Positions 5,843 to 23,226 of a stretch of DNA of 24,813 nt are shown here, piece after piece. Made by a program: the position numbers and the translations under genes. The stretch lies in IMG/VR virus record IMGVR_UViG_2529292921_000026, one strand, 5' to 3'. Position 1 is the first letter of the stretch; each line of letters opens with the position of its first letter. A model generated the notes under the pieces. It made no database searches. It was not told the origin of the DNA and saw nothing but the letters and a program-made list of their open reading frames with translations. The DNA is from a virus. Its lineage: Duplodnaviria; Heunggongvirae; Uroviricota; Caudoviricetes.

Positions 5843-6205
5843 TTAATGACCTGCTGCGCGTAGTTTTCCGTCAGGTTCACCGGCAAGAGTCAGTAATTGT
5901 CCCTGGTCTTCCTGCAGAATAGTCAGGCGACCACCGCGATTGACATACATCGGTGTTTCGGTGGTGTCTTCTTCGGAAATTTTCCCGCGGTTAGTCGGGC
6001 GAACATATGAGAGTTTGTGTTTGATTTTCACACGGTTCTCATCAAATGGTTCGATTTCCAGGTTGAGCGAGACCTTACCTTTGGTTTTCGTGTTCATCAC
6101 ACCGGAAGCGACTTCACTGAGAGCTGCGCCGATTTTGGTTTCAAATACGCCGCCGTCCAGCTCCCCGATAAATGCCTGCACATCAGTACTGCGTTCGCTA
6201 GCCAT
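5843..6205 (-). CDS. hypothetical protein, first gene of the leftward (PL-like) operon (YfdP-like?)
   Basis: ATG at 6205-6203 has GAGGAG 7 nt upstream and gives 120 aa (MASERSTDVQAFIGELDGG...). The ORF track's longer 182-aa version extends upstream through Cys/Arg-rich sequence that looks non-coding. Not Arg-rich at the N-terminus, so not an N-like antiterminator. Confidence 0.45.
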   Translation of the reverse strand: MASERSTDVQAFIGELDGGVFETKIGAALSEVASGVMNTKTKGKVSLNLEIEPFDENRVKIKHKLSYVRPTNRGKISEEDTTETPMYVNRGGRLTILQEDQGQLLTLAGEPDGKLRAAGH

Positions 6206-6253
6206 TTTGCTGCTCCTCATCATATCGACCCTGCAAGGTCGGTTAGTTTCTCC

Positions 6254-6398
6254 ACAAAACAGAGAAGAACACCTGCGGTGGCAGCCGCCCGGATGGATTG
6301 GGTTATGAGCCCGTCGTCCGGTGATGTTCTTCTCTGTTTTGTAAAAAGAGCGGTACCAGCCGGAAGCAAGTGTACAAACTGGTACCGCCAAAGCAGTG
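6254..6398 (-). promoter_or_regulatory. structured leader of the leftward transcript: two hairpins plus a boxA-like motif (putative nut/put-like element)
   Basis: 18-bp perfect inverted repeat ACAAAACAGAGAAGAACA(6254-6271) / TGTTCTTCTCTGTTTTGT(6325-6342). A second 10-bp inverted repeat GCGGTACCAG(6349-6358) / CTGGTACCGC(6389-6398). On the minus strand the sequence CGCTCTTTTTACAAAA (6353-6338) resembles boxA (CGCTCTTA / rrn GCTCTTTAACAA). Confidence 0.3.
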
Positions 6399-6546
6399 GC
6401 TGTTGTGGTGACCGGTGCTGATCTCCGGCTTGCGGTTATTTCAGACTCTCACGGGCGTTTAATTGCCCCGCCGAACAGCTCTTTTCCGCAATAGCTGCAA
6501 TGTCTTTCGCGCATCAGCCTGCGCATTCACCACAACTCTAAAAACA

Positions 6547-6600
6547 AATGTAGGATATCCAACATGCGAGTGTCAAGAGTTTATGTTGGTTATCCTACAT
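6547..6600. promoter_or_regulatory. left operator/promoter (OL/PL-like) for the leftward operon
   Basis: Near-palindromic 18-mer ATGTAGGATATCCAACAT (6548-6565) and a second copy ATGTTGGTTATCCTACAT (6583-6600). On the minus strand TTGACA (6576-6571) sits 17 bp upstream of CTACAT (6553-6548), a -35/-10 arrangement overlapped by the operator. Confidence 0.5.
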
Positions 6601-6616
6601 AAAAAGATAGGCTCAT

Positions 6617-6642
6617 AAAAAAACCGGGGATACCCCGGTTTT
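6617..6642 (-). terminator. rho-independent terminator downstream of the repressor gene
   Basis: Hairpin CCGGGG(6624-6629)-ATA-CCCCGG(6633-6638) is flanked by 7 A (6617-6623, a T-run on the minus strand) and by TTTT on the plus strand. It lies 20 bp beyond the repressor stop. Confidence 0.45.
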
Positions 6643-6662
6643 GCGATAGTGAGGAAGATGTG

Positions 6663-7316
6663 TCAAAAATCCATTATTACTTGTTTGACAAGACCAACTA
6701 TTCTGCAGTTCTCACCGCATTCAATAGTTTTATAGTTAGGATTTAGTGGGACGAGATACCTGTTCGGCCAGTCCTCAACAAATTTTTTGAGTGTCGCTTC
6801 TTGCCCACCATTGATATGGGCAACAACGATTTTTCCGTTAATACACTCTGTATCAATAATATCTGGCTCTACGATAACGATAGAACCTTCTGGTATCGAT
6901 GGTGAGCCGAGGGGATTGGTCATTGAATCACCACGGACCCGTAGTGCAAATGCCATTTCTGATACAAGGGCGGTAGTATAAACCCACTCTTCAGCATCTT
7001 CTTTCCTGACACCAGGCTCCGTCATTGTCCATGAACCCGCCTGAACCCACGAGATTAGGGGGACTTTTTTAACTGCGAATATTTCAGGTTTTAGATTTAT
7101 CTTTGGTTCAGGCGAGCCTTTTCCGCTAACAAGCCACAGAGGATCGCATTTAAGTGCGTTGGCTAGGGCTTGAAGGTTGGCTCCATTTGGTTGGTAGTCG
7201 TCCTTTTCCCATCCAGTAACCGTGACACGGTTCACACCAGTCAAATCAGCCAGTGCTTGTTGTGTCAGGTTCAGTTCTTTTCGCCTTTGGCGAATACGAT
7301 CACTCATGTTCATCAT
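6663..7316 (-). CDS. CI/C2-like prophage repressor (N-terminal HTH-XRE, C-terminal S24 LexA-like peptidase)
   Basis: N-terminus RIRQRRKELNLTQQALADLTGVNRVTVTGWE is an XRE-type HTH. The C-terminal domain carries the S24 self-cleavage serine motif (RVRGDSMTNP) and a catalytic Lys region. Overall it resembles P22 C2 as I recall it, and it sits between the two operator regions. Confidence 0.8.
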   Translation of the reverse strand: MMNMSDRIRQRRKELNLTQQALADLTGVNRVTVTGWEKDDYQPNGANLQALANALKCDPLWLVSGKGSPEPKINLKPEIFAVKKVPLISWVQAGSWTMTEPGVRKEDAEEWVYTTALVSEMAFALRVRGDSMTNPLGSPSIPEGSIVIVEPDIIDTECINGKIVVAHINGGQEATLKKFVEDWPNRYLVPLNPNYKTIECGENCRIVGLVKQVIMDF

Positions 7317-7338
7317 GTAGGCAATCCTACCACATGCC

Positions 7339-7380
7339 CATGTAGGATTCTTGACATTGGCATGTTGGATATCCTACATT
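7339..7380. promoter_or_regulatory. right operator/promoter (OR/PR-like) for cro and the rightward operon
   Basis: ATGTTGGATATCCTACAT (7362-7379) plus a degenerate copy ATGTAGGATTCTTGACAT (7339-7356). TTGACA (7351-7356) is followed 18 bp later by TACATT (7375-7380). A 33-bp block here is a near-exact inverted copy of 6547-6579. Confidence 0.5.
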
Positions 7381-7411: not shown

Positions 7412-7609
7412 ATGCGGAAATCCGACGTGATTAATTATTTCGGCGGAGTTTGTAAAACCGCCGAAGCCCTAGGTATTAAGCATCCGTCTGTTTCAGAGTG
7501 GCCTGAGATTATTCCTGAAGGCCGAGCGTACCAGTTAGAAAAAATTACTAACGGGAAACTGAAAGTTGACGTGTCTTTATATCAAAAGACTAACAGTGCT
7601 GCGGCATAA
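7412..7609 (+). CDS. cro: Cro-like transcriptional regulator (P22 Cro family)
   Basis: 65-aa ORF (MRKSDVINYFGG...ALGIKHPSVSEWPEIIPEGRAYQLEKIT) resembles P22 Cro as I recall it. GGGAGA RBS upstream; divergent from the repressor across the operator region. Confidence 0.7.
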   Translation: MRKSDVINYFGGVCKTAEALGIKHPSVSEWPEIIPEGRAYQLEKITNGKLKVDVSLYQKTNSAAA

Positions 7610-7636: not shown

Positions 7637-8221
7637 GTGGGTAAAGAACCTGAATGGAAAGTTGATAAACAACCAGCATGGCTGGTGGCAGCAATACGAA
7701 GAACGATTGCTGATTTACCTCATGGCTATGAGGAAGCAGCAGAAATTCTTGGTTTGTATAAATCTGATGATATCACCCCAGCAAAAGATCAATTGCATAA
7801 CAGACTGCGTAGCGGTGGGGATCAAATTTTTCCACTTGAGTGGGCCATGGTTTTACAGGATGCCAGTGGTACCAGGCATGTAACGGATGCGATAGCGCGT
7901 CGTAGTAATGGGGTGTTTGTGCCGCTGGTGGACATTGATGACATTGACAATGGTGACATTAATCAGCGGCTGATGGAGTCAATAGAATGGATTGGCAAGC
8001 ATTCCCAGTACTTACGCAAGGCAACTGCTGATGGAGTTATTGACCAGGCTGAGCGTGAGCAAATCGAAGAGAACAGCTACCAAGTAATGGCGAAGTGGCA
8101 GGAGCATTTAACACTGTTATTTCGTGTTTTTTGTGCACCGGAAAAGAGTAACGCCCGCGAGTGTGCAGCTCCGGGCGTCGTGGCGTCGATTGCTTCTGGT
8201 TGTGGAGAAACTAACGCATGA
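7637..8221 (+). CDS. phage CII-like regulatory protein (CP76-type), putative
   Basis: GTG start at 7637 has GAGG 8 nt upstream and follows cro by 27 bp. The 194-aa product has a central helix region. Family assignment is from position and weak recall only. Confidence 0.4.
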   Translation: MGKEPEWKVDKQPAWLVAAIRRTIADLPHGYEEAAEILGLYKSDDITPAKDQLHNRLRSGGDQIFPLEWAMVLQDASGTRHVTDAIARRSNGVFVPLVDIDDIDNGDINQRLMESIEWIGKHSQYLRKATADGVIDQAEREQIEENSYQVMAKWQEHLTLLFRVFCAPEKSNARECAAPGVVASIASGCGETNA

Positions 8222-8366
8222 ACAGTTTAACGGCAAATAACCGTTTGTCGCAACAGCTGGTGGTCAGCGTCGCTGAACACCTGTTGTTACGGCATGAATG
8301 CAGATTACCAAATCACCTGGCTGTAAGTAACCACAGAGAACTTTACCTGACTGTGGGGGGCGAGTT

Positions 8367-8546
8367 GTGCAGGAACTTAACCGCTGGTTTCGTGACGGAA
8401 GAGGGCTTTATGTCCATGTTATTCGTTGGGAGCCAGAAACACAGCGCGTTATCTATCTTCGCAAAGACTACCCGCATGAGTGCTTTAGTCCTTTGTGGAA
8501 ATTCAGGCGTGATTTTGTTGAGTGTGAAGGACCACCAGCACATTGA
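8367..8546 (+). CDS. candidate small protein (59 aa) in the cII-rha gap
   Basis: Frame-3 ORF with GTG at 8367 preceded by a GGGGGG run and a 6-nt spacer. Translation MQELNRWFRDGRGLYVHVIRWEPETQRVIYLRKDYPHECFSPLWKFRRDFVECEGPPAH has protein-like composition. It is below the ORF-track cutoff and competes with a frame-1 ORF. Confidence 0.3.
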   Translation: MQELNRWFRDGRGLYVHVIRWEPETQRVIYLRKDYPHECFSPLWKFRRDFVECEGPPAH

Positions 8547-8631
8547 TTCTGCCATTCCGGGACGTTACACTGTTCAGGCACCTTATAAAGCGGGTGCCGG
8601 GATTGGCGTCCTGAAATTGATTACTGAGCAT

Positions 8632-8653
8632 AACCGCGCTCATGCGGTTTTTT
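8632..8653 (+). terminator. weak terminator-like hairpin plus T-run (tR-like)
   Basis: AACCGC(8632-8637)-GCTCAT-GCGGTT(8644-8649) followed by TTTT (8650-8653), within the 600-bp stretch between the CII-like and Rha-like genes. Confidence 0.3.
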
Positions 8654-8823
8654 CGTGTCATGAGCATTGCTACGCCCAAATTATGGTGGGGCGTACAGGG
8701 CCGACTTCGGTCGGGCCGGGTTCGGTAGTCTCCGGTAACGCCAACCCTGTACGTCTCACCACCTCTGTGATTGGCGTCCCATGTGGTGAGTTTTCTGAAA
8801 AACTGACTACCGGGGCTGTCACC

Positions 8824-9381
8824 ATGACTACTCTCCCAACCCTCTCTCAACCTGAAATTGCCATCGTTGATGGTCAGGCTGTTACATCTTCTTTGGCTGT
8901 TGCTGACTTCTTCTCTAAACGTCATGACGATGTTCTGAAAAAGATCCGCATTTTGGATTGTTCTCCAGAGTTTTGTGCCCGCAATTTTGCGGAGACATCA
9001 ATTTTGGTACACCAGCCCAACGGCGGTACTCGCAAACTTCCTTGCTACCACATCACCCGTGACGGCTTCGCGTTCCTGGCAATGGGCTTCACTGGCAAAC
9101 GTGCTGCCCAGTTCAAAGAGGCATACATCAATGCCTTTAACCAGATGGAGAAACAGCTTTCAAAGCCCTCTGTACCGAGCGACGTTGCACATAACGCCAG
9201 CGTTCTCTATTCCTACATTTCATCAATTCATCAGGTCTGGTTGCAGCAGCTTTATCCCATGCTGGAAAAAGCTGAATCACCGCTGGCTGTAAGTCTGTAT
9301 GACCGAATTAACGATGCGGCATTTCTTGCCCGTCTTATTCATTCGTCGCTGAACTCTTCAGAGGTAAGGGGGCGCAAATGA
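8824..9381 (+). CDS. Rha-family phage regulatory protein
   Basis: N-terminal IAIVDGQAVTSSLAVADFFSKRHDDVLKKIR matches the Rha-domain signature (V-T-S-L-x-IAE-x-FGKRHxxVLRxI). ATG at 8824 has GGGG 8 nt upstream. The ORF track's 387-aa version adds a 200-aa upstream extension that I consider unlikely. Confidence 0.6.
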   Translation: MTTLPTLSQPEIAIVDGQAVTSSLAVADFFSKRHDDVLKKIRILDCSPEFCARNFAETSILVHQPNGGTRKLPCYHITRDGFAFLAMGFTGKRAAQFKEAYINAFNQMEKQLSKPSVPSDVAHNASVLYSYISSIHQVWLQQLYPMLEKAESPLAVSLYDRINDAAFLARLIHSSLNSSEVRGRK

Positions 9382-19398: not shown

Positions 19399-19545
19399 TC
19401 GCCGGCCTGCCAAAGCCGTCCCGACAGGTATGGAGACAATATGTTGAACAGAAAACTAAATATACGGCTACGTCATTCCCTGAACAGTTACTGCATACCT
19501 TCCATCATTATCAATAACACCGTACGTTCATTTCAGAGGTCAGTC

Positions 19546-20223
19546 ATGAATACCAGAGCTCTTTTTCCCCTGCTGTTCACTGTGGCATCATTCTCCGCCT
19601 CCGCCGGCAACTGGGCTGTCAAAAACGGCTGGTGTCAGACCATGACGGAAGATGGTCAGGCGCTGGTAATGCTGAAAAATGGCACGACTGGTATTACCGG
19701 CCTGATGCAGGGATGCCCGAATGGCGTACAGACGCTCCTGGGCAGCCGTATCAGTATTAACGGTAACCTGATCCCCACATCACAAATGTGTAATCAGCAG
19801 ACGGGATTCAGGGCTGTTGAGGTGGAAATCGGACAGGCGCCGGAAATGGTCAAAAAAGCCGTTCACTCCATAGCAGAGCGTGATGTGTCCGTTTTACAGG
19901 CATTTGGTGTACGAATGGAATTCACCCGCGGTGATATGCTGAAGGTCTGTCCGAAATTTGTCACATCACTTGCCGGTTTTTCCCCGAAACAGACGACCAC
20001 TATTAATAAAGATTCCGTCCTGCAGGCTGCCCGGCAGGCATACGCCCGGGAATATGACGAGGAAACAACAGAAACCGCTGATTTTGGCTCTTACGAAGTA
20101 AAAGGCAATAAGGTTGAGTTTGAAGTATTCAATCCTGAAGACCGTGCGTACGACAAAGTGACCGTCACGGTTGGTGCTGACGGTAATGCCACCGGCGCCA
20201 GCGTTGAATTTATCGGAAAATAG
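19546..20223 (+). CDS. secreted protein with signal peptide, unknown function
   Basis: ATG at 19546 has AGAGG 6 nt upstream. N-terminus [23 protein letters not shown] is a Sec signal peptide. The ORF track's upstream extension lacks an RBS. Confidence 0.5.
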
Positions 20224-20228
20224 CCGGT

Positions 20229-20462
20229 ATGTCGGACTGCCACCCTGTTTTATTGCCCGAAGGCCCTTTCTCACGCGAACAGGCGGTTGCCGTCACAACA
20301 GCTTACCGCAATGTGCTTATTGAAGATGACCAGGGAACGCATTTCCGGCTGGTTATCCGCAATGCCGAAGGGCAGCTACGCTGGCGGTGCTGGAATTTTG
20401 AACCTGATGCCGGAAAACAGCTAAATTCGTATCTCGCCAGTGAGGGAATTCTCAGGCAATAA
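20229..20462 (+). CDS. DUF905-family small protein (YkfF/YpjJ-like)
   Basis: 77-aa ORF ([57 protein letters not shown]...) in the expected position of this family in CP4-type islands. Confidence 0.6.
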
Positions 20463-20485
20463 ACGTCTTCATTTCATCCATCAGG

Positions 20486-20518
20486 CCGCGTCTTCTCCGG
20501 GAGACGTGGCTTTTTCAT
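20486..20518 (+). terminator. rho-independent terminator after the DUF905 gene
   Basis: 10-bp stem (with G-U pairs) CCGCGTCTTC / GGGAGACGTGG around a tetraloop, followed by CTTTTTCATTT. Confidence 0.5.
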
Positions 20519-20560
20519 TTATTACACCAGTAAATCTTAACCACCGATAAGGAGCAAATT

Positions 20561-21379
20561 ATGCGACTAGCCAGTCGTTTTGGTTATGCGAACCAGATAC
20601 GCCGTGACCGTCCGCTGACACACGAAGAACTGATGCACTATGTGCCGGGGATTTTCGGGGAAGATAAACACACGTCCCGAAGCCAGAACTATACGTACAT
20701 CCCCACCATCACCGTACTGGAAAGCCTGCAGAGGGAAGGCTTTCAGCCATTCTTCGCCTGCCAGACCCGTGTGCGCGACCCGGGCCGCCGGGGATACACA
20801 AAACACATGCTGCGTCTGCGGCGGGCCGGAGAGATAAACGGAGAACATGTCCCTGAAATTATTCTGCTCAACTCTCATGACGGTACCTCCAGCTACCAGA
20901 TGCTGCCGGGTTACTTCAGGTTCGTCTGCCAGAACGGATGCGTCTGTGGTCAGTCTCTGGGGGAAGTGCGTGTTCCGCACCGGGGAAATGTGGTGGACAG
21001 AGTCATTGAAGGGGCTTACGAGGTGGTGGGCGTGTTTGACCGGATTGAGGAAAAGCGTGATGCCATGCAGTCGCTGATTCTGCCGCCACCGGCACGCCAG
21101 GCGCTGGCACAGGCGGCACTGACTTACCGTTATGGTGACGAACATCAGCCCGTCACCACCGCCGACATTCTGACGCCACGACGCCGGGAGGATTACGGTA
21201 AGGACCTGTGGAGTGCTTATCAGACCATTCAGGAGAATATGCTGAAAGGCGGAATTTCAGGTCGCAGCGCTAAAGGAAAACGTATCCATACCCGTGCCAT
21301 TCACAGCATTGACACTGACATTAAGCTCAACCGCGCATTGTGGGTGATGGCGGAAACCCTGCTGGAGAGCCTGCGCTGA
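20561..21379 (+). CDS. DUF932-family protein (YfjQ/YafZ-like)
   Basis: 272-aa ORF with AAGGAG RBS upstream. Sequence and position match the DUF932 paralogs of CP4-44/CP4-57/CP4-6 as I recall them. Confidence 0.65.
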   Translation: MRLASRFGYANQIRRDRPLTHEELMHYVPGIFGEDKHTSRSQNYTYIPTITVLESLQREGFQPFFACQTRVRDPGRRGYTKHMLRLRRAGEINGEHVPEIILLNSHDGTSSYQMLPGYFRFVCQNGCVCGQSLGEVRVPHRGNVVDRVIEGAYEVVGVFDRIEEKRDAMQSLILPPPARQALAQAALTYRYGDEHQPVTTADILTPRRREDYGKDLWSAYQTIQENMLKGGISGRSAKGKRIHTRAIHSIDTDIKLNRALWVMAETLLESLR

Positions 21380-21433
21380 TTCAGCCATTACCCTGAAAAC
21401 CACGCATTTATTTGTCCTTTAAGGAGTCATTTC

Positions 21434-21919
21434 ATGAAAACCATTTCACATAATTCCACCACATCTTCTGTTTCCGTAACCGCTGCATCAGGGAATGACC
21501 AGCCTCAGCTGGTTGCCACCATAGTCCCTGATGAACAGCGCATCAGCTTCTGGCCGCAGCATTTTGGCCTCATTCCACAGTGGGTGACCCTGGAGCCCCG
21601 TATCTTCGGCTGGATGGACCGTCTTTGCGAAGACTACTGCGGTGGTATCTAGAATCTGTACACACTGAACAACGGTGGCGCATTTATAGCGCCCGAACCG
21701 GATGACGATGATGGCGAAACATGGGTACTGTTCAATGCCATGAACGGTAACCGCGCTGAAATGAGCCCGGAAGCCGCCGGCATTGCTGCCTGTCTGATGA
21801 CGTACAGTCATCACGCCTGTCGTACGGAGTATTATGCCATGACGGTCCATTATTACCGGCTGCGGGATTACGCCCTGCAGCATCCGGAATGCAGCGCCAT
21901 TATGCGCATCATCGACTGA
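21434..21919 (+). pseudogene. antirestriction protein (KlcA/ArdB-like, YfjX/YafX/YeeS family) interrupted by an in-frame TAG
   Basis: A single 161-codon frame runs from ATG 21434 to TGA 21917-21919, with an amber codon at 21650-21652 (codon 73). Both halves read as antirestriction-family sequence (...FGWMDRLCEDYCGGI * NLYTLNNGGAFIAPEPDDDDGETWVLFNAMNG...). Confidence 0.6.
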
Positions 21920-21934
21920 ATGGAGGCAGGGACA

Positions 21935-22411
21935 ATGCAGCAGCTTTCCTTTCTGCCCGGAGAAATGACGCCCGGCGAGCGCAGTCTCATTCTGCGGGCT
22001 CTGAAAACCCTGGACCGCCATCTTCATGAACCCGGTGTGGCCTTCACCTCCACCCGTGCGGCACGGGAATGGCTGATTCTGAACATGGCGGGACTGGAGC
22101 GTGAAGAGTTCCGGGTGCTGTATCTGAACAACCAGAATCAGTTGATTGCCGGTGAAACCCTCTTCACCGGCACCATCAACCGCACGGAAGTCCATCCCCG
22201 TGAAGTGATTAAACGCGCCCTGTATCACAATGCCGCTGCTGTGGTGCTGGCACACAATCACCCGTCCGGTGAAGTCACACCCAGCAAGGCAGACCGCCTT
22301 ATCACGGAACGTCTGGTACAGGCACTGGGCCTGGTGGATATCCGGGTGCCGGACCATCTGATAGTCGGTGGCAGCCAGGTTTTCTCCTTTGCCGAACATG
22401 GTCTGCTTTAA
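21935..22411 (+). CDS. RadC-like JAB/MPN-domain protein (YeeS/YfjY/YkfG family)
   Basis: JAB metalloprotease motif HNHPSGEVTPSKAD. ATG at 21935 has GGAGG 9 nt upstream. The translation from MQQLSFLPGEMTPGER... matches this family. Confidence 0.75.
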   Translation: MQQLSFLPGEMTPGERSLILRALKTLDRHLHEPGVAFTSTRAAREWLILNMAGLEREEFRVLYLNNQNQLIAGETLFTGTINRTEVHPREVIKRALYHNAAAVVLAHNHPSGEVTPSKADRLITERLVQALGLVDIRVPDHLIVGGSQVFSFAEHGLL

Positions 22412-22473
22412 CCCGTCACAACCACATCACACCTGTTTTCACTTTTATCTTCTGTCTTCAGAGGTATCCCACT

Positions 22474-22695
22474 ATGAAAATCATCACCCGTGGCGAAGCC
22501 ATGCGTATTCACCGTCAGCATCCGGCATCCCGTCTTTTTCCGTTCTGTACCGGCAAATACCGCTGGCACGGCAGTGCTGAAGCGTATACCGGTCGTGAAG
22601 TGCAGGATATTCCCGGTGTGCTGGCCGTGTTTGCAGAACGCCGTAAGGACAGTTTTGGTCCGTATGTCCGGCTGATGAGCGTCACCCTGAACTGA
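22474..22695 (+). CDS. DUF987-family protein (YeeT/YkfH-like)
   Basis: 73-aa ORF MKIITRGEAMRIHRQHPASRLFPFCTGKYRWHGSAEAYTGREVQDIPGVLAVF... is near-identical to YeeT as I recall it. Confidence 0.7.
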   Translation: MKIITRGEAMRIHRQHPASRLFPFCTGKYRWHGSAEAYTGREVQDIPGVLAVFAERRKDSFGPYVRLMSVTLN

Positions 22696-22857
22696 TGTTC
22701 CGTCACCCGGAAAACGAGTACGACTGGCTGAGCTCAGACGCCGCTGTGGATGAGGTCCTGCTCATCAACGAATACACCTTTACCGAAGCCGGTCTGCGCG
22801 CCGGCTGACCCGTCATCGTTAAACTATCATTCACCGATTTTCTGTGAGGATTTTATC

Positions 22858-23226
22858 GTGTCAGACACACTTTCCGGGACAACGCATCCCGATGACAATG
22901 ACGACCATCCCTGGTGGGGACTACCCTGCACAGTGACGCCCTGTTTCGGCGCCCGTCTGGTGCAGGAGGGTAACCGGTTGCATTACCTTGCCGACCGTGC
23001 CGGTATCAGAGGCCGGTTCAGCGATGCAGATGCGTACCACCTGGACCAGGCCTTTCCGCTGCTGATGAAACAACTGGAACTCATGCTCACCAGCGGTGAA
23101 CTGAATCCCCGCCATCAGCATACCGTCACGCTGTATGCAAAAGGTCTGACCTGCAAAGCTGACACTCTCGGTAGCGGTGGTTACGTTTATCTGGCTGTTT
23201 ATCCGACGCCCGAAACGAAAAAGTAA
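22858..23226 (+). CDS. cbeA: type IV antitoxin CbeA (YeeU family)
   Basis: GTG at 22858 has GAGGA 7 nt upstream and gives 122 aa ([52 protein letters not shown]...), matching YeeU. It lies immediately upstream of the toxin gene. Confidence 0.75.

Follow-up and report, generated by a model that had tools for sequence, protein, structure and literature searches.

Here we present a comparative analysis of the untranslated leader of the leftward operon in a lambdoid prophage of Escherichia coli, carried on IMG/VR virus record IMGVR_UViG_2529292921_000026 (24,813 nucleotides (nt), the whole stretch being termed the window), which similarity searches place with the mEp460, cdtI, SfV and Stx2c-phage type. 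About 335 nt of RNA lie between the predicted start of the leftward early promoter (PL) and the first start codon, that of yfdP, and this leader is a conserved, strand-specific structured RNA. It is a mosaic of horizontally exchanged RNA modules and not a nut or put site. Read in the direction of transcription, the modules (Table 1) are a tRNA-like element termed B, a single-stranded linker, an intrinsic-terminator-like hairpin (T) with its run of U, a three-way junction (H2), a small hairpin (H3) and the ribosome-binding site (RBS) of yfdP. We consider it an evenly balanced call whether PL makes an RNA of ~195 nt that belongs to the STnc100/PasD class and ends at T, with H2 and H3 carried as a 5′ untranslated region (5′UTR) element by the transcripts that read through. 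A prophage small RNA (sRNA) with its terminator and a structured 5′UTR are both of a known kind, and the subfamily to which this B belongs lies outside the Rfam model.

Conserved modules of the leftward leader

Folded as minus-strand RNA, the leader reached -142 kcal/mol (z = -5.05) and none of 100 shuffled sequences equalled it, which bears out the structured leader proposed for this region by a first-pass annotation made from the sequence alone. The 18-bp perfect stem described there is exact, 6254-6271 pairing with 6325-6342, and the long hairpin containing it has a z-score of -7.63 by itself. In a similarity search, E. coli genomes aligned to the window over 6150-6391, 6150-6410/6418, 6150-6539 or the whole stretch, and at least part of the leader was contained in 2970 of 5426 complete genomes. 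The joints of this mosaic coincide with the module borders. The segment 6401-6536 occurs by itself, 98.5% identical, in P1-type plasmids and in phage P1, where it stands beside tRNA-Thr and tRNA-Asn, and 6216-6391 is 83.5% identical in the e14 prophage of K-12, there just upstream of xisE. Owing to these sharp breakpoints the leader was treated as B, linker, T with its U-run, H2, H3 and RBS, none of which is annotated except as a doubtful open reading frame (ORF), ymfH.

Known RNA families gave no account of the leader. Over the whole window, Rfam at gathering thresholds returned isrK and C4 alone, both of them outside the leader, and lax Rfam searches of the leader itself gave noise only (MIR1094, a snoRNA and Guanidine-I at 17 bits). 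ARAGORN called zero tRNA or tmRNA genes in the window. A literature sequence search with four diagnostic 16-17-mers retrieved no paper, and a search for ymfH retrieved nothing relevant to RNA.

The closing helix of B, GUUGUGGUGA (6536-6527) paired with UCACCACAAC (6411-6402), begins 3-5 nt past the predicted PL start. Inside it follow a conserved 5′ hairpin (AUGCGCAGGCUGAUGCGC), an internal branched region that forms the variable centre, and a conserved 3′ hairpin (GCCGGAGAUCAGCACCGG) abutting the 3′ strand of the closing helix. A search of a phage collection found B-type elements in 137 phage records, most of which align at the two ends only; these ends, of ~30 nt each, are often 95-100% identical, and the whole element varies between 95 and 232 nt owing to its centre. 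The hosts of the element include T1-like Klebsiella siphoviruses, the N4-like phage IME11, Vi01-like phages of 158 kb, P1 and the lambdoid phages HK629 and HK633, together with phages of Aeromonas, Stenotrophomonas, Hafnia and Edwardsiella. A pattern scan of viral contigs added dozens more copies, once spurious matches to the end of a lambda tail gene (GGTCAGGTTGTGGTGATTGG...) had been removed.

In every annotated context, including P1, IME207, IME11 and HK629, B is co-oriented with the flanking genes and tRNAs, and it often adjoins tRNA genes; this constant orientation indicates that it is read as RNA in one sense. The 5′ strand of the closing helix was fixed by the search pattern, so that variation was judged on the 3′ strand, where most changes replace C by U opposite G or A by G opposite U, and these retain pairing in the transcribed sense only. 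Both small hairpins show compensatory changes (GCGCA/UGCGC to GCACA/UGUGC, and GCCGG/CCGGC to ACCGG/CCGGU), and their loops (GCUGAU and AUCAGC), a candidate for a kissing interaction, are mostly conserved and do not covary. The conserved flanks of B are asymmetric, boxA-like on the 5′ side and CAAAUCAC on the 3′ side. Most copies, for example those in several viral contigs and in Pantoea phage PA-1, are directly preceded by (C)AGUGCUCUUUCC, a feature outside the search pattern, which includes the first eight bases of rrn boxA (UGCUCUUU); it may be a Nus-factor site guarding untranslated RNA cassettes. The window copy has no such boxA-like flank because the PL region abuts its closing helix. 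A topology like that of the hepatitis delta virus ribozyme was considered for B with its 5′ flank and rejected on reading the sequences, the required P1 partner not being conserved.

The linker between B and T (AGCCACUGCUUU) occupies the position of the seed region in Hfq-type sRNAs, and relatives carry a different linker that is itself conserved (UGCUGUGUGUAGUCUU). In the minimum free energy fold it pairs (AGCCA and CUGCU, 6390-6401) with the region of the yfdP start codon and Shine-Dalgarno (SD) sequence (UGGCU and AGCAG, 6200-6218). This pairing is probably coincidental, since relatives with the same yfdP start region have different linkers.

T was compared with its counterparts in leaders upstream of yfdP homologues, a collection of 31 genome loci (spanning Escherichia, Shigella, Buttiauxella, Mangrovibacter, Enterobacter, Kosakonia, Phytobacter, Providencia and others) and the phages ST64B, phiNP, LLS and Kp4866-6, of which the 26 leaders having the downstream structure formed the comparison set. 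In the window the stem pairs 6389-6377 with 6361-6349 and consists of a GC-rich 10-bp core extended by G-U pairs. The first-pass annotation had placed a 10-bp-stem hairpin at 6349-6398; its core (6350-6359 with 6379-6388) is real, and its upper bound was set ~10 nt too high. The tail of T is CUUUUUAC at 6348-6341. All 26 relatives have a GC-rich stem of 6-14 bp followed directly by 5-8 U and then AC, and the stem sequences differ among them with compensating changes (GGCGGUACCAG, GUCGGCGUC, UGCCCAUCG, GCGGCGUCU, GCGGCACCU). Such a combination of stem and U-run is the signature of an intrinsic terminator as far as sequence can tell. A simple terminator scan missed T because its loop limit was 8 nt.

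The tail of T lies within the string that had been read as boxA-like. That string, CGCUCUUUUUACAAAA, is present at 6351-6336, and it turned out to be the 3′ arm of the T hairpin plus the U-tract, not conserved as boxA. Set against the boxA class (CGCUCUUA / UGCUCUUUAACA), the window has CGCUCUUUUUAC, and GCUCUU is kept in only 2 of the 26 relatives. At this position the relatives read CCGCC-CUUUUU, GCCGC-ACUUUUUU and similar, and e14 reads CGCCCUUUUU, the conserved features being the end of the stem and the U-run. In many relatives, ST64B and Kp4866-6 among them, T is longer, its apical part displaying an SD sequence (AGGAGG) as well as a mini-ORF (AUG/GUG-UUC-UGA) that stops directly against the 3′ arm. 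Such an arrangement suggests that translation controls the terminator. The versions of T in the window and in e14 are without SD sequence and mini-ORF.

H2 shows strong covariation. Its basal helix P1 (Table 1) has 23 pairs in the consensus of 23 leaders, takes in an SD-like GGAG and includes the pairing of the T U-run with a conserved GUGGAG(A). Across the alignment of these 23 leaders, pairing holds in 97.8% of the cells, and both partners have changed in 13 of 35 pairs; 0 of 500 shuffles attained the score observed for pairing or for covariation, and pairing fell to 43-61% when partners were slid by 1-3 columns. Several positions are U-G in nearly all sequences and would give C-A mismatches on the opposite strand, by which H2 belongs to the leftward transcript. 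Conservation and covariation across related prophages had been named beforehand as the check on the structured leader, and both came out in its favour, H2 covarying and the structure of T being kept throughout its comparison set. Neither Rfam nor the searched literature yielded a description of H2.

The arm P2 is nearly invariant around GACGGGCUCAU(A/U)(A/C)CCCAAUC. Its core is unique in the window, was expected 0 times by chance and is present in at least 120 viral contigs. A stretch of 14 nt in this arm, CGGGCUCAUAACCC, exactly matches the anticodon stem-loop of E. coli initiator tRNA. That tRNA sequence proved 100% identical in all 5426 E. coli genomes checked, the median being four copies. 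By a rough estimate, a 14-mer would be identical to any part of ~8 kb of stable RNA by chance in ~0.3% of cases, which makes descent or mimicry more likely. No target complementary to the H2 loop was found in the window beyond the element itself. The third arm, P3, varies from 14 to ~40 nt (14 in the window, 39 in phiNP).

Two contexts of H2 were observed. In one, T, H2 and H3 precede the first early-left gene, which may be yfdP, an rdgC-like gene or, in e14, xis, and H2/H3 sit immediately upstream of its RBS. In the other, in late regions of Klebsiella type, H2 follows directly after tRNA genes and has a 6-bp closing helix, a 3′ GCCA and a tRNA-like outline. A plain long hairpin takes the place of the inner arms in Providencia, suggesting that the long helix and the conserved arm have separable roles. 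The place of H3 is taken in relatives by a different hairpin (CGGCGGUGGCAGCCGCC).

The long helix P1 is a plausible RNase III substrate by analogy with the processing hairpins of phage leaders, such as the lambda N leader and the T7 early sites. P1 shares with them a length of 20 bp or more and a position that separates an upstream RNA signal from the RBS of the first gene; H2 differs in having two conserved inner arms and a near-invariant loop.

Kinship of module B with STnc100/PasD RNAs and tRNA-like elements

The relation of B to the Rfam family STnc100 (RF02076) can be deciphered from intermediates. On a 226-nt stretch, the window copy gave no match to the model at E <= 10, the gathering threshold being 47 bits. 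In Klebsiella phage 2 LV-2017, a B-type element a short way beyond PR′ received 81 bits from the same model, and the elements that occupy the slot of window B in ST64B and e14 were weak matches at 35 and 29 bits, respectively. The terminator hairpin that forms part of the model aligns, in e14, to the T homologue. Comparison of the window fold with the Rfam consensus structure lines, together with side-by-side sequences, showed the architecture of STnc100 in the window as well: closing helix, 5′ hairpin, variable centre, 3′ hairpin, linker and a terminator with U-run. Compared directly, the STnc100-positive element grades through the e14/ST64B type into the window type, all three having common ends, (G)UGGUGAAU on the 5′ side and GCACC(C)GG-CACCA on the 3′ side.

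The likeness to STnc100/PasD thus comprises the same order of parts, the (G)UGGUGAAU...CACCA helix, the 3′ hairpin CCGG...GCACCGG, the linker and the terminator, and extends to a home in enterobacterial lambdoid prophages. The differences concern position and range. The window copy would be driven by PL, whereas the full STnc100 match examined lies just downstream of PR′ and not early-left, and the published copies lie near Q or downstream of stx2. In addition, the window subfamily reaches P1 and lytic N4-, T1- and Vi01-like phages and merges gradually with tRNA-like elements. Transcription of STnc100 copies is documented for enterohaemorrhagic E. coli, with one of them verified by northern blot (PMC5331693). 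PasD sRNAs are abundant and bound by Hfq, and the Pas sRNAs terminate in a stem-loop and poly-U (bioRxiv 10.64898/2026.05.13.724894; PMC12370729).

Slot occupants found by way of neighbouring features, and so unbiased towards B, have the same closing helix around different interiors. The Phytobacter slot holds an element called by ARAGORN as tRNA-Ile (AAU), with a GGGUUCGAAUCCC T-arm and a CUAAUAA anticodon loop (1722-1800 and 1186-1264 of the two extracted Phytobacter loci), and two further occupants have canonical D and T arms and a long insertion. These tRNA-like occupants are closed by a GUUGUGG.../...CCACAAC helix and have the same boxA-like flank on the 5′ side. B and H2 of the window were called neither by ARAGORN nor by the Rfam tRNA model (E <= 10).

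Phage tRNAs and RNase P substrates, such as the C4 RNA of P1/P7 and the M3 RNA of phi80, resemble B in that its acceptor-like helix abuts a T-arm-like hairpin. Furthermore, B sits among tRNA genes, some of its slot-mates are called as tRNAs, and a C4 RNA lies elsewhere in the window. B and H2 differ from these RNAs in being without T-loop and D-loop consensus sequences. The tRNA-like outlines of the modules are plausibly RNase P signals. We infer that B belongs to a superfamily of tRNA-derived cassettes in which the Rfam STnc100 family would be one branch. The Pas paper mentions tRNA-like sequences once, as remnants of integration sites (bioRxiv 10.64898/2026.05.13.724894), and no description of a link between STnc100/PasD and tRNA-like cassettes was found in the searched literature. 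If true, STnc100/PasD would be part of a much wider family of tRNA-like cassettes with conserved processing-type flanks and exchangeable centres, which would give a handle on the origin of these RNAs and on what the conserved scaffold binds.

Upstream of B, the leaders of phiNP and Kp4866-6 hold 0.6-1 kb of untranslated sequence with further structured pieces, including isolated hairpins like the T-arm of tRNA (GGUCCGUUCGAUUCGGAC, CUGGUUCGAUUCCAG). These leaders look like arrays of noncoding cassettes.

Expected transcripts and competing explanations

When the repressor leaves the OL operators, PL would first transcribe the tRNA-like RNA of STnc100/PasD class. Only 12 nt separate B from T, so that a PL transcript would measure ~195 nt if it stopped in the U-tract near 6343. 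Read-through of T would add H2 and H3 as a 5′UTR element, which most likely acts after transcription on the processing, stability or translation of the first gene. The structures, their conservation and covariation, their strand and their modular distribution are what the analysis shows; termination at T, a discrete sRNA, its binding by Hfq and every functional role proposed here are what we infer, and among the suggestions of the first-pass annotation its fallback, an sRNA or attenuator, comes closest to the evidence. A comparable arrangement is provided by the PR′-tR′ 6S RNA of lambda and by StxS of Stx phages, with which the leader shares a strong phage promoter, an intrinsic terminator within ~200 nt and the expectation of a short abundant RNA. 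In those systems transcription starts at PR′ and Q overrides termination; the present leader starts at PL, and no antiterminator is known for it.

Several points weigh against the proposal of a ~195-nt RNA. The loop of T is long (15-19 nt) and is followed by only five consecutive U, so its strength is uncertain, and an efficient T would leave the expression of the early-left genes unexplained. The putative membership of B in STnc100 rests on shared architecture and intermediates rather than on score, and the role given to H2 is a guess. Moreover, the boxA-like GUGCUCUUUCC directly 5′ of most B copies hints at co-transcriptional Nus-factor biology beyond a plain sRNA gene. If T does terminate, N-less lambdoid phages of the SfV/ST64B/mEp460/e14 type would open their leftward operon with a terminator, which makes early-gene expression in such phages a tractable question.

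The first-pass annotation had compared the layout with the nut site of lambda and with the put RNAs of HK022. It had correctly reported that no N-like gene is present, the first two leftward genes being YfdP, which has no Pfam family, and a DUF2303/YfdQ protein. Lambda nut has in common with the leader a boxA-like string followed by a hairpin downstream of PL. The comparison fails on the remaining features: boxA is not conserved, in place of a boxB of ~15 nt there follows a three-way junction of 99 nt built on a basal helix of 25 bp, and no N-family protein is encoded just downstream.

The put system is likewise a structured RNA that follows directly on an early promoter in a lambdoid phage without an N gene and is itself followed by terminators; it suppresses downstream terminators in cis, in dependence on the zinc-binding domain of the RNA polymerase beta-prime subunit. 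On this model B would be a cis-acting RNA antiterminator that renders RNA polymerase terminator-resistant, so that it reads through T and later terminators. The location of B, which opens the PL transcript and in every case precedes a terminator-like hairpin, would suit such a role, as would the B-type elements just downstream of PR′, the boxA-like sequence before most family members and the lack of an N-like gene. We nevertheless hold it unlikely. A put RNA consists of two stem-loops, ~70 nt in all, whereas B is a multi-branch tRNA-like fold of 135 nt, and the PL-nun interval of HK022, which holds putL, bore no resemblance to B or H2 when folded and inspected by eye, a formal alignment not being made. 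HK022 was also absent among the matches listed in the leader similarity searches. No second copy of B or H2 was found downstream of PR in the window, and the window B is one that lacks the boxA-like flank. Late operons also contain these modules, as do the tRNA clusters of P1 and of lytic phages of N4-, T1- and Vi01-like type, a distribution that fits poorly with a device specific to N-less early operons. Some family members are themselves tRNAs. These tRNA-cluster contexts, which span differing transcription programmes, and the accumulation of STnc100/PasD relatives as discrete RNAs (PMC5331693; bioRxiv 10.64898/2026.05.13.724894) make a put-like function the less likely alternative.

It could also be supposed that the whole 335 nt form one cis-acting 5′UTR with no product acting in trans. 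Its structure would shield the leader from Rho and RNases, T would be a leaky attenuator or pause, and the H2 helix would be an RNase III or RNase P site setting the stability and translation of yfdP mRNA. We rate this as rather unlikely, notwithstanding that helix P1 of H2 is kept at ~25 bp in all relatives, that a plain extended hairpin replaces the inner arms in Providencia, that H2/H3 always abut the RBS of the first gene and that T of many relatives contains the SD sequence and mini-ORF. B and the H2 arm also occur away from any 5′UTR, in tRNA clusters and late operons, their near-invariant loops suggest specific recognition and not generic structure, and the T of the window has no mini-ORF. 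An explanation at the level of DNA, with B as a miniature inverted-repeat transposable element or a recombination linker whose inverted repeats mimic RNA hairpins, is very improbable. In its favour, the ends of B are near-symmetric (GTTGTGGTGA and, with GCTGAT as its loop on either strand, a small hairpin) and mosaic joints coincide with them. It was rejected on the constant orientation to transcription in every annotated context, the asymmetric flanks and G-U pairs that work on one strand only; in addition, no target-site duplications were noticed, no systematic search for them being made.

Protein coding is scarcely credible. Either a YmfH-like ORF or an N-terminal extension of YfdP (a 182-aa ORF with TTG start, 5843-6391) might be proposed: the matching part of e14 is annotated as ymfH in RefSeq, in the window as in e14 one reading frame runs uninterrupted through T and H2, and that of yfdP has no stop codon as far back as 6391. 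Both were rejected on the indel pattern and the compensatory substitutions: indels among relatives are not multiples of three (P3 of 14 against 39 nt; T loops of 3-49 nt) and substitutions are compensatory in stems and not biased towards synonymous ones. The ymfH ORF has its upstream half within the variable centre of B, a part that is unrelated in the window, and NCBI starts YfdP at an ATG with a strong SD sequence. The ymfH gene of e14 (2502-2813 of the extracted e14 locus) coincides with the e14 copy of B, T and H2, and is probably not protein-coding.

A more far-reaching role in trans is distinctly unlikely in our estimate and would nonetheless be of wide consequence. B and H2 would both be tRNA-derived mimics travelling as mobile phage cassettes. 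The H2 arm would copy the anticodon stem-loop of initiator tRNA (GGG/CCC stem, CUCAU loop) and act either as a nuclease decoy or as a ligand of the initiation machinery, and B would be a tRNA-shaped scaffold for a variable "cargo" centre. As a decoy, it would be bait for host nucleases that target tRNA, namely VapC-type toxins, of which those cutting initiator tRNA are an example, or other anticodon nucleases of abortive infection; as a ligand, it would engage methionyl-tRNA synthetase, initiation factor 3 or the P site of the 30S subunit. If true, this would unite the STnc100/PasD prophage sRNAs and the phage tRNA islands as one class of tRNA-mimic cassettes. The leader modules span phages of very different lifestyles, and H2, a strongly covarying motif outside Rfam with an invariant loop like that of initiator tRNA, stands at the entry to early operons and is directly testable.

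Promoter, operators and neighbouring genes

The position of the PL-like site between the repressor gene and the leftward genes fits its role as promoter, and it mirrors a PR-like site at 7351-7380 found by the same consensus scan. Judging from the promoter sequence, the PL transcript should start near 6540. The repeat family at OL recurs at OR (7314-7380, around PR), so that both mirror-image sigma-70 promoters, one on each side of the repressor gene, are embedded in 18-bp operator repeats.

Table 1. Coordinates of the leader modules and of the surrounding features in the window
Feature	Position	Strand	Description and basis
Module B, tRNA-like / STnc100-class cassette	6402..6536	-	135 nt; fold
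B-T linker, single-stranded	6390..6401	-	AGCCACUGCUUU; fold
T, intrinsic-terminator-like hairpin	6341..6389	-	free energy -21 kcal/mol, z -4.65
H2, three-way-junction motif	6249..6347	-	99 nt; free energy -51 kcal/mol, z -7.63
H2 helix P1	6347-6323 with 6273-6249	-	25 bp; contains the 18-bp stem; T U-run pairs with GUGGAGA
H2 arm P2, conserved	6321-6289	-	
P2 near-invariant core	6295..6315	-	GACGGGCUCAUAACCCAAUCC
H2 hairpin P3, variable	6288-6275	-	
H3, small hairpin	6226..6241	-	between H2 and RBS, after conserved GUGGAGAAACUAAC; fold
yfdP start	6203..6218	-	SD GAGGAG 6218-6213, ATG 6205-6203; sequence and RefSeq annotation of 99.6% identical locus
PL promoter	6547..6576	-	-35 TTGACA 6576-6571, 18-nt spacer, -10 TACATT 6552-6547; consensus scan, 10/12 matches
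OL operators	6548..6600		18-bp repeats, 6548-6565 (ATGTAGGATATCCAACAT) and a relative at 6583-6600; flank/overlap PL; direct reading
Repressor gene, helix-turn-helix and S24-peptidase	6663-7316	-	
P22-type Cro gene	7412-7609	+	
CII-like protein gene	7637-8221	+	

Between the repressor stop codon (6663) and OL/PL stands a strong hairpin at 6613-6645 (AAAACCGGGG-AUA/UAU-CCCCGGUUUU) with U-runs on both strands. It probably terminates transcription in both directions and prevents the repressor transcript from entering the PL operon.

In the rightward operon, the two Rfam matches of the window, isrK (59 bits, 8578-8654, plus strand) and C4 antisense RNA (82 bits, 8679-8766, plus strand), stand in tandem inside ORF 8218-9381 and just upstream of a reading frame with a Rha domain (8800-9381). 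This region is an RNA-controlled antirepressor module of the P1/Gifsy type. At the right-hand end of the window, 19441-23226 holds genes for a DUF932 protein, a RadC-like JAB protein and a CbeA antitoxin, which suggests that this end is a different integrative island and not part of the lambdoid prophage.

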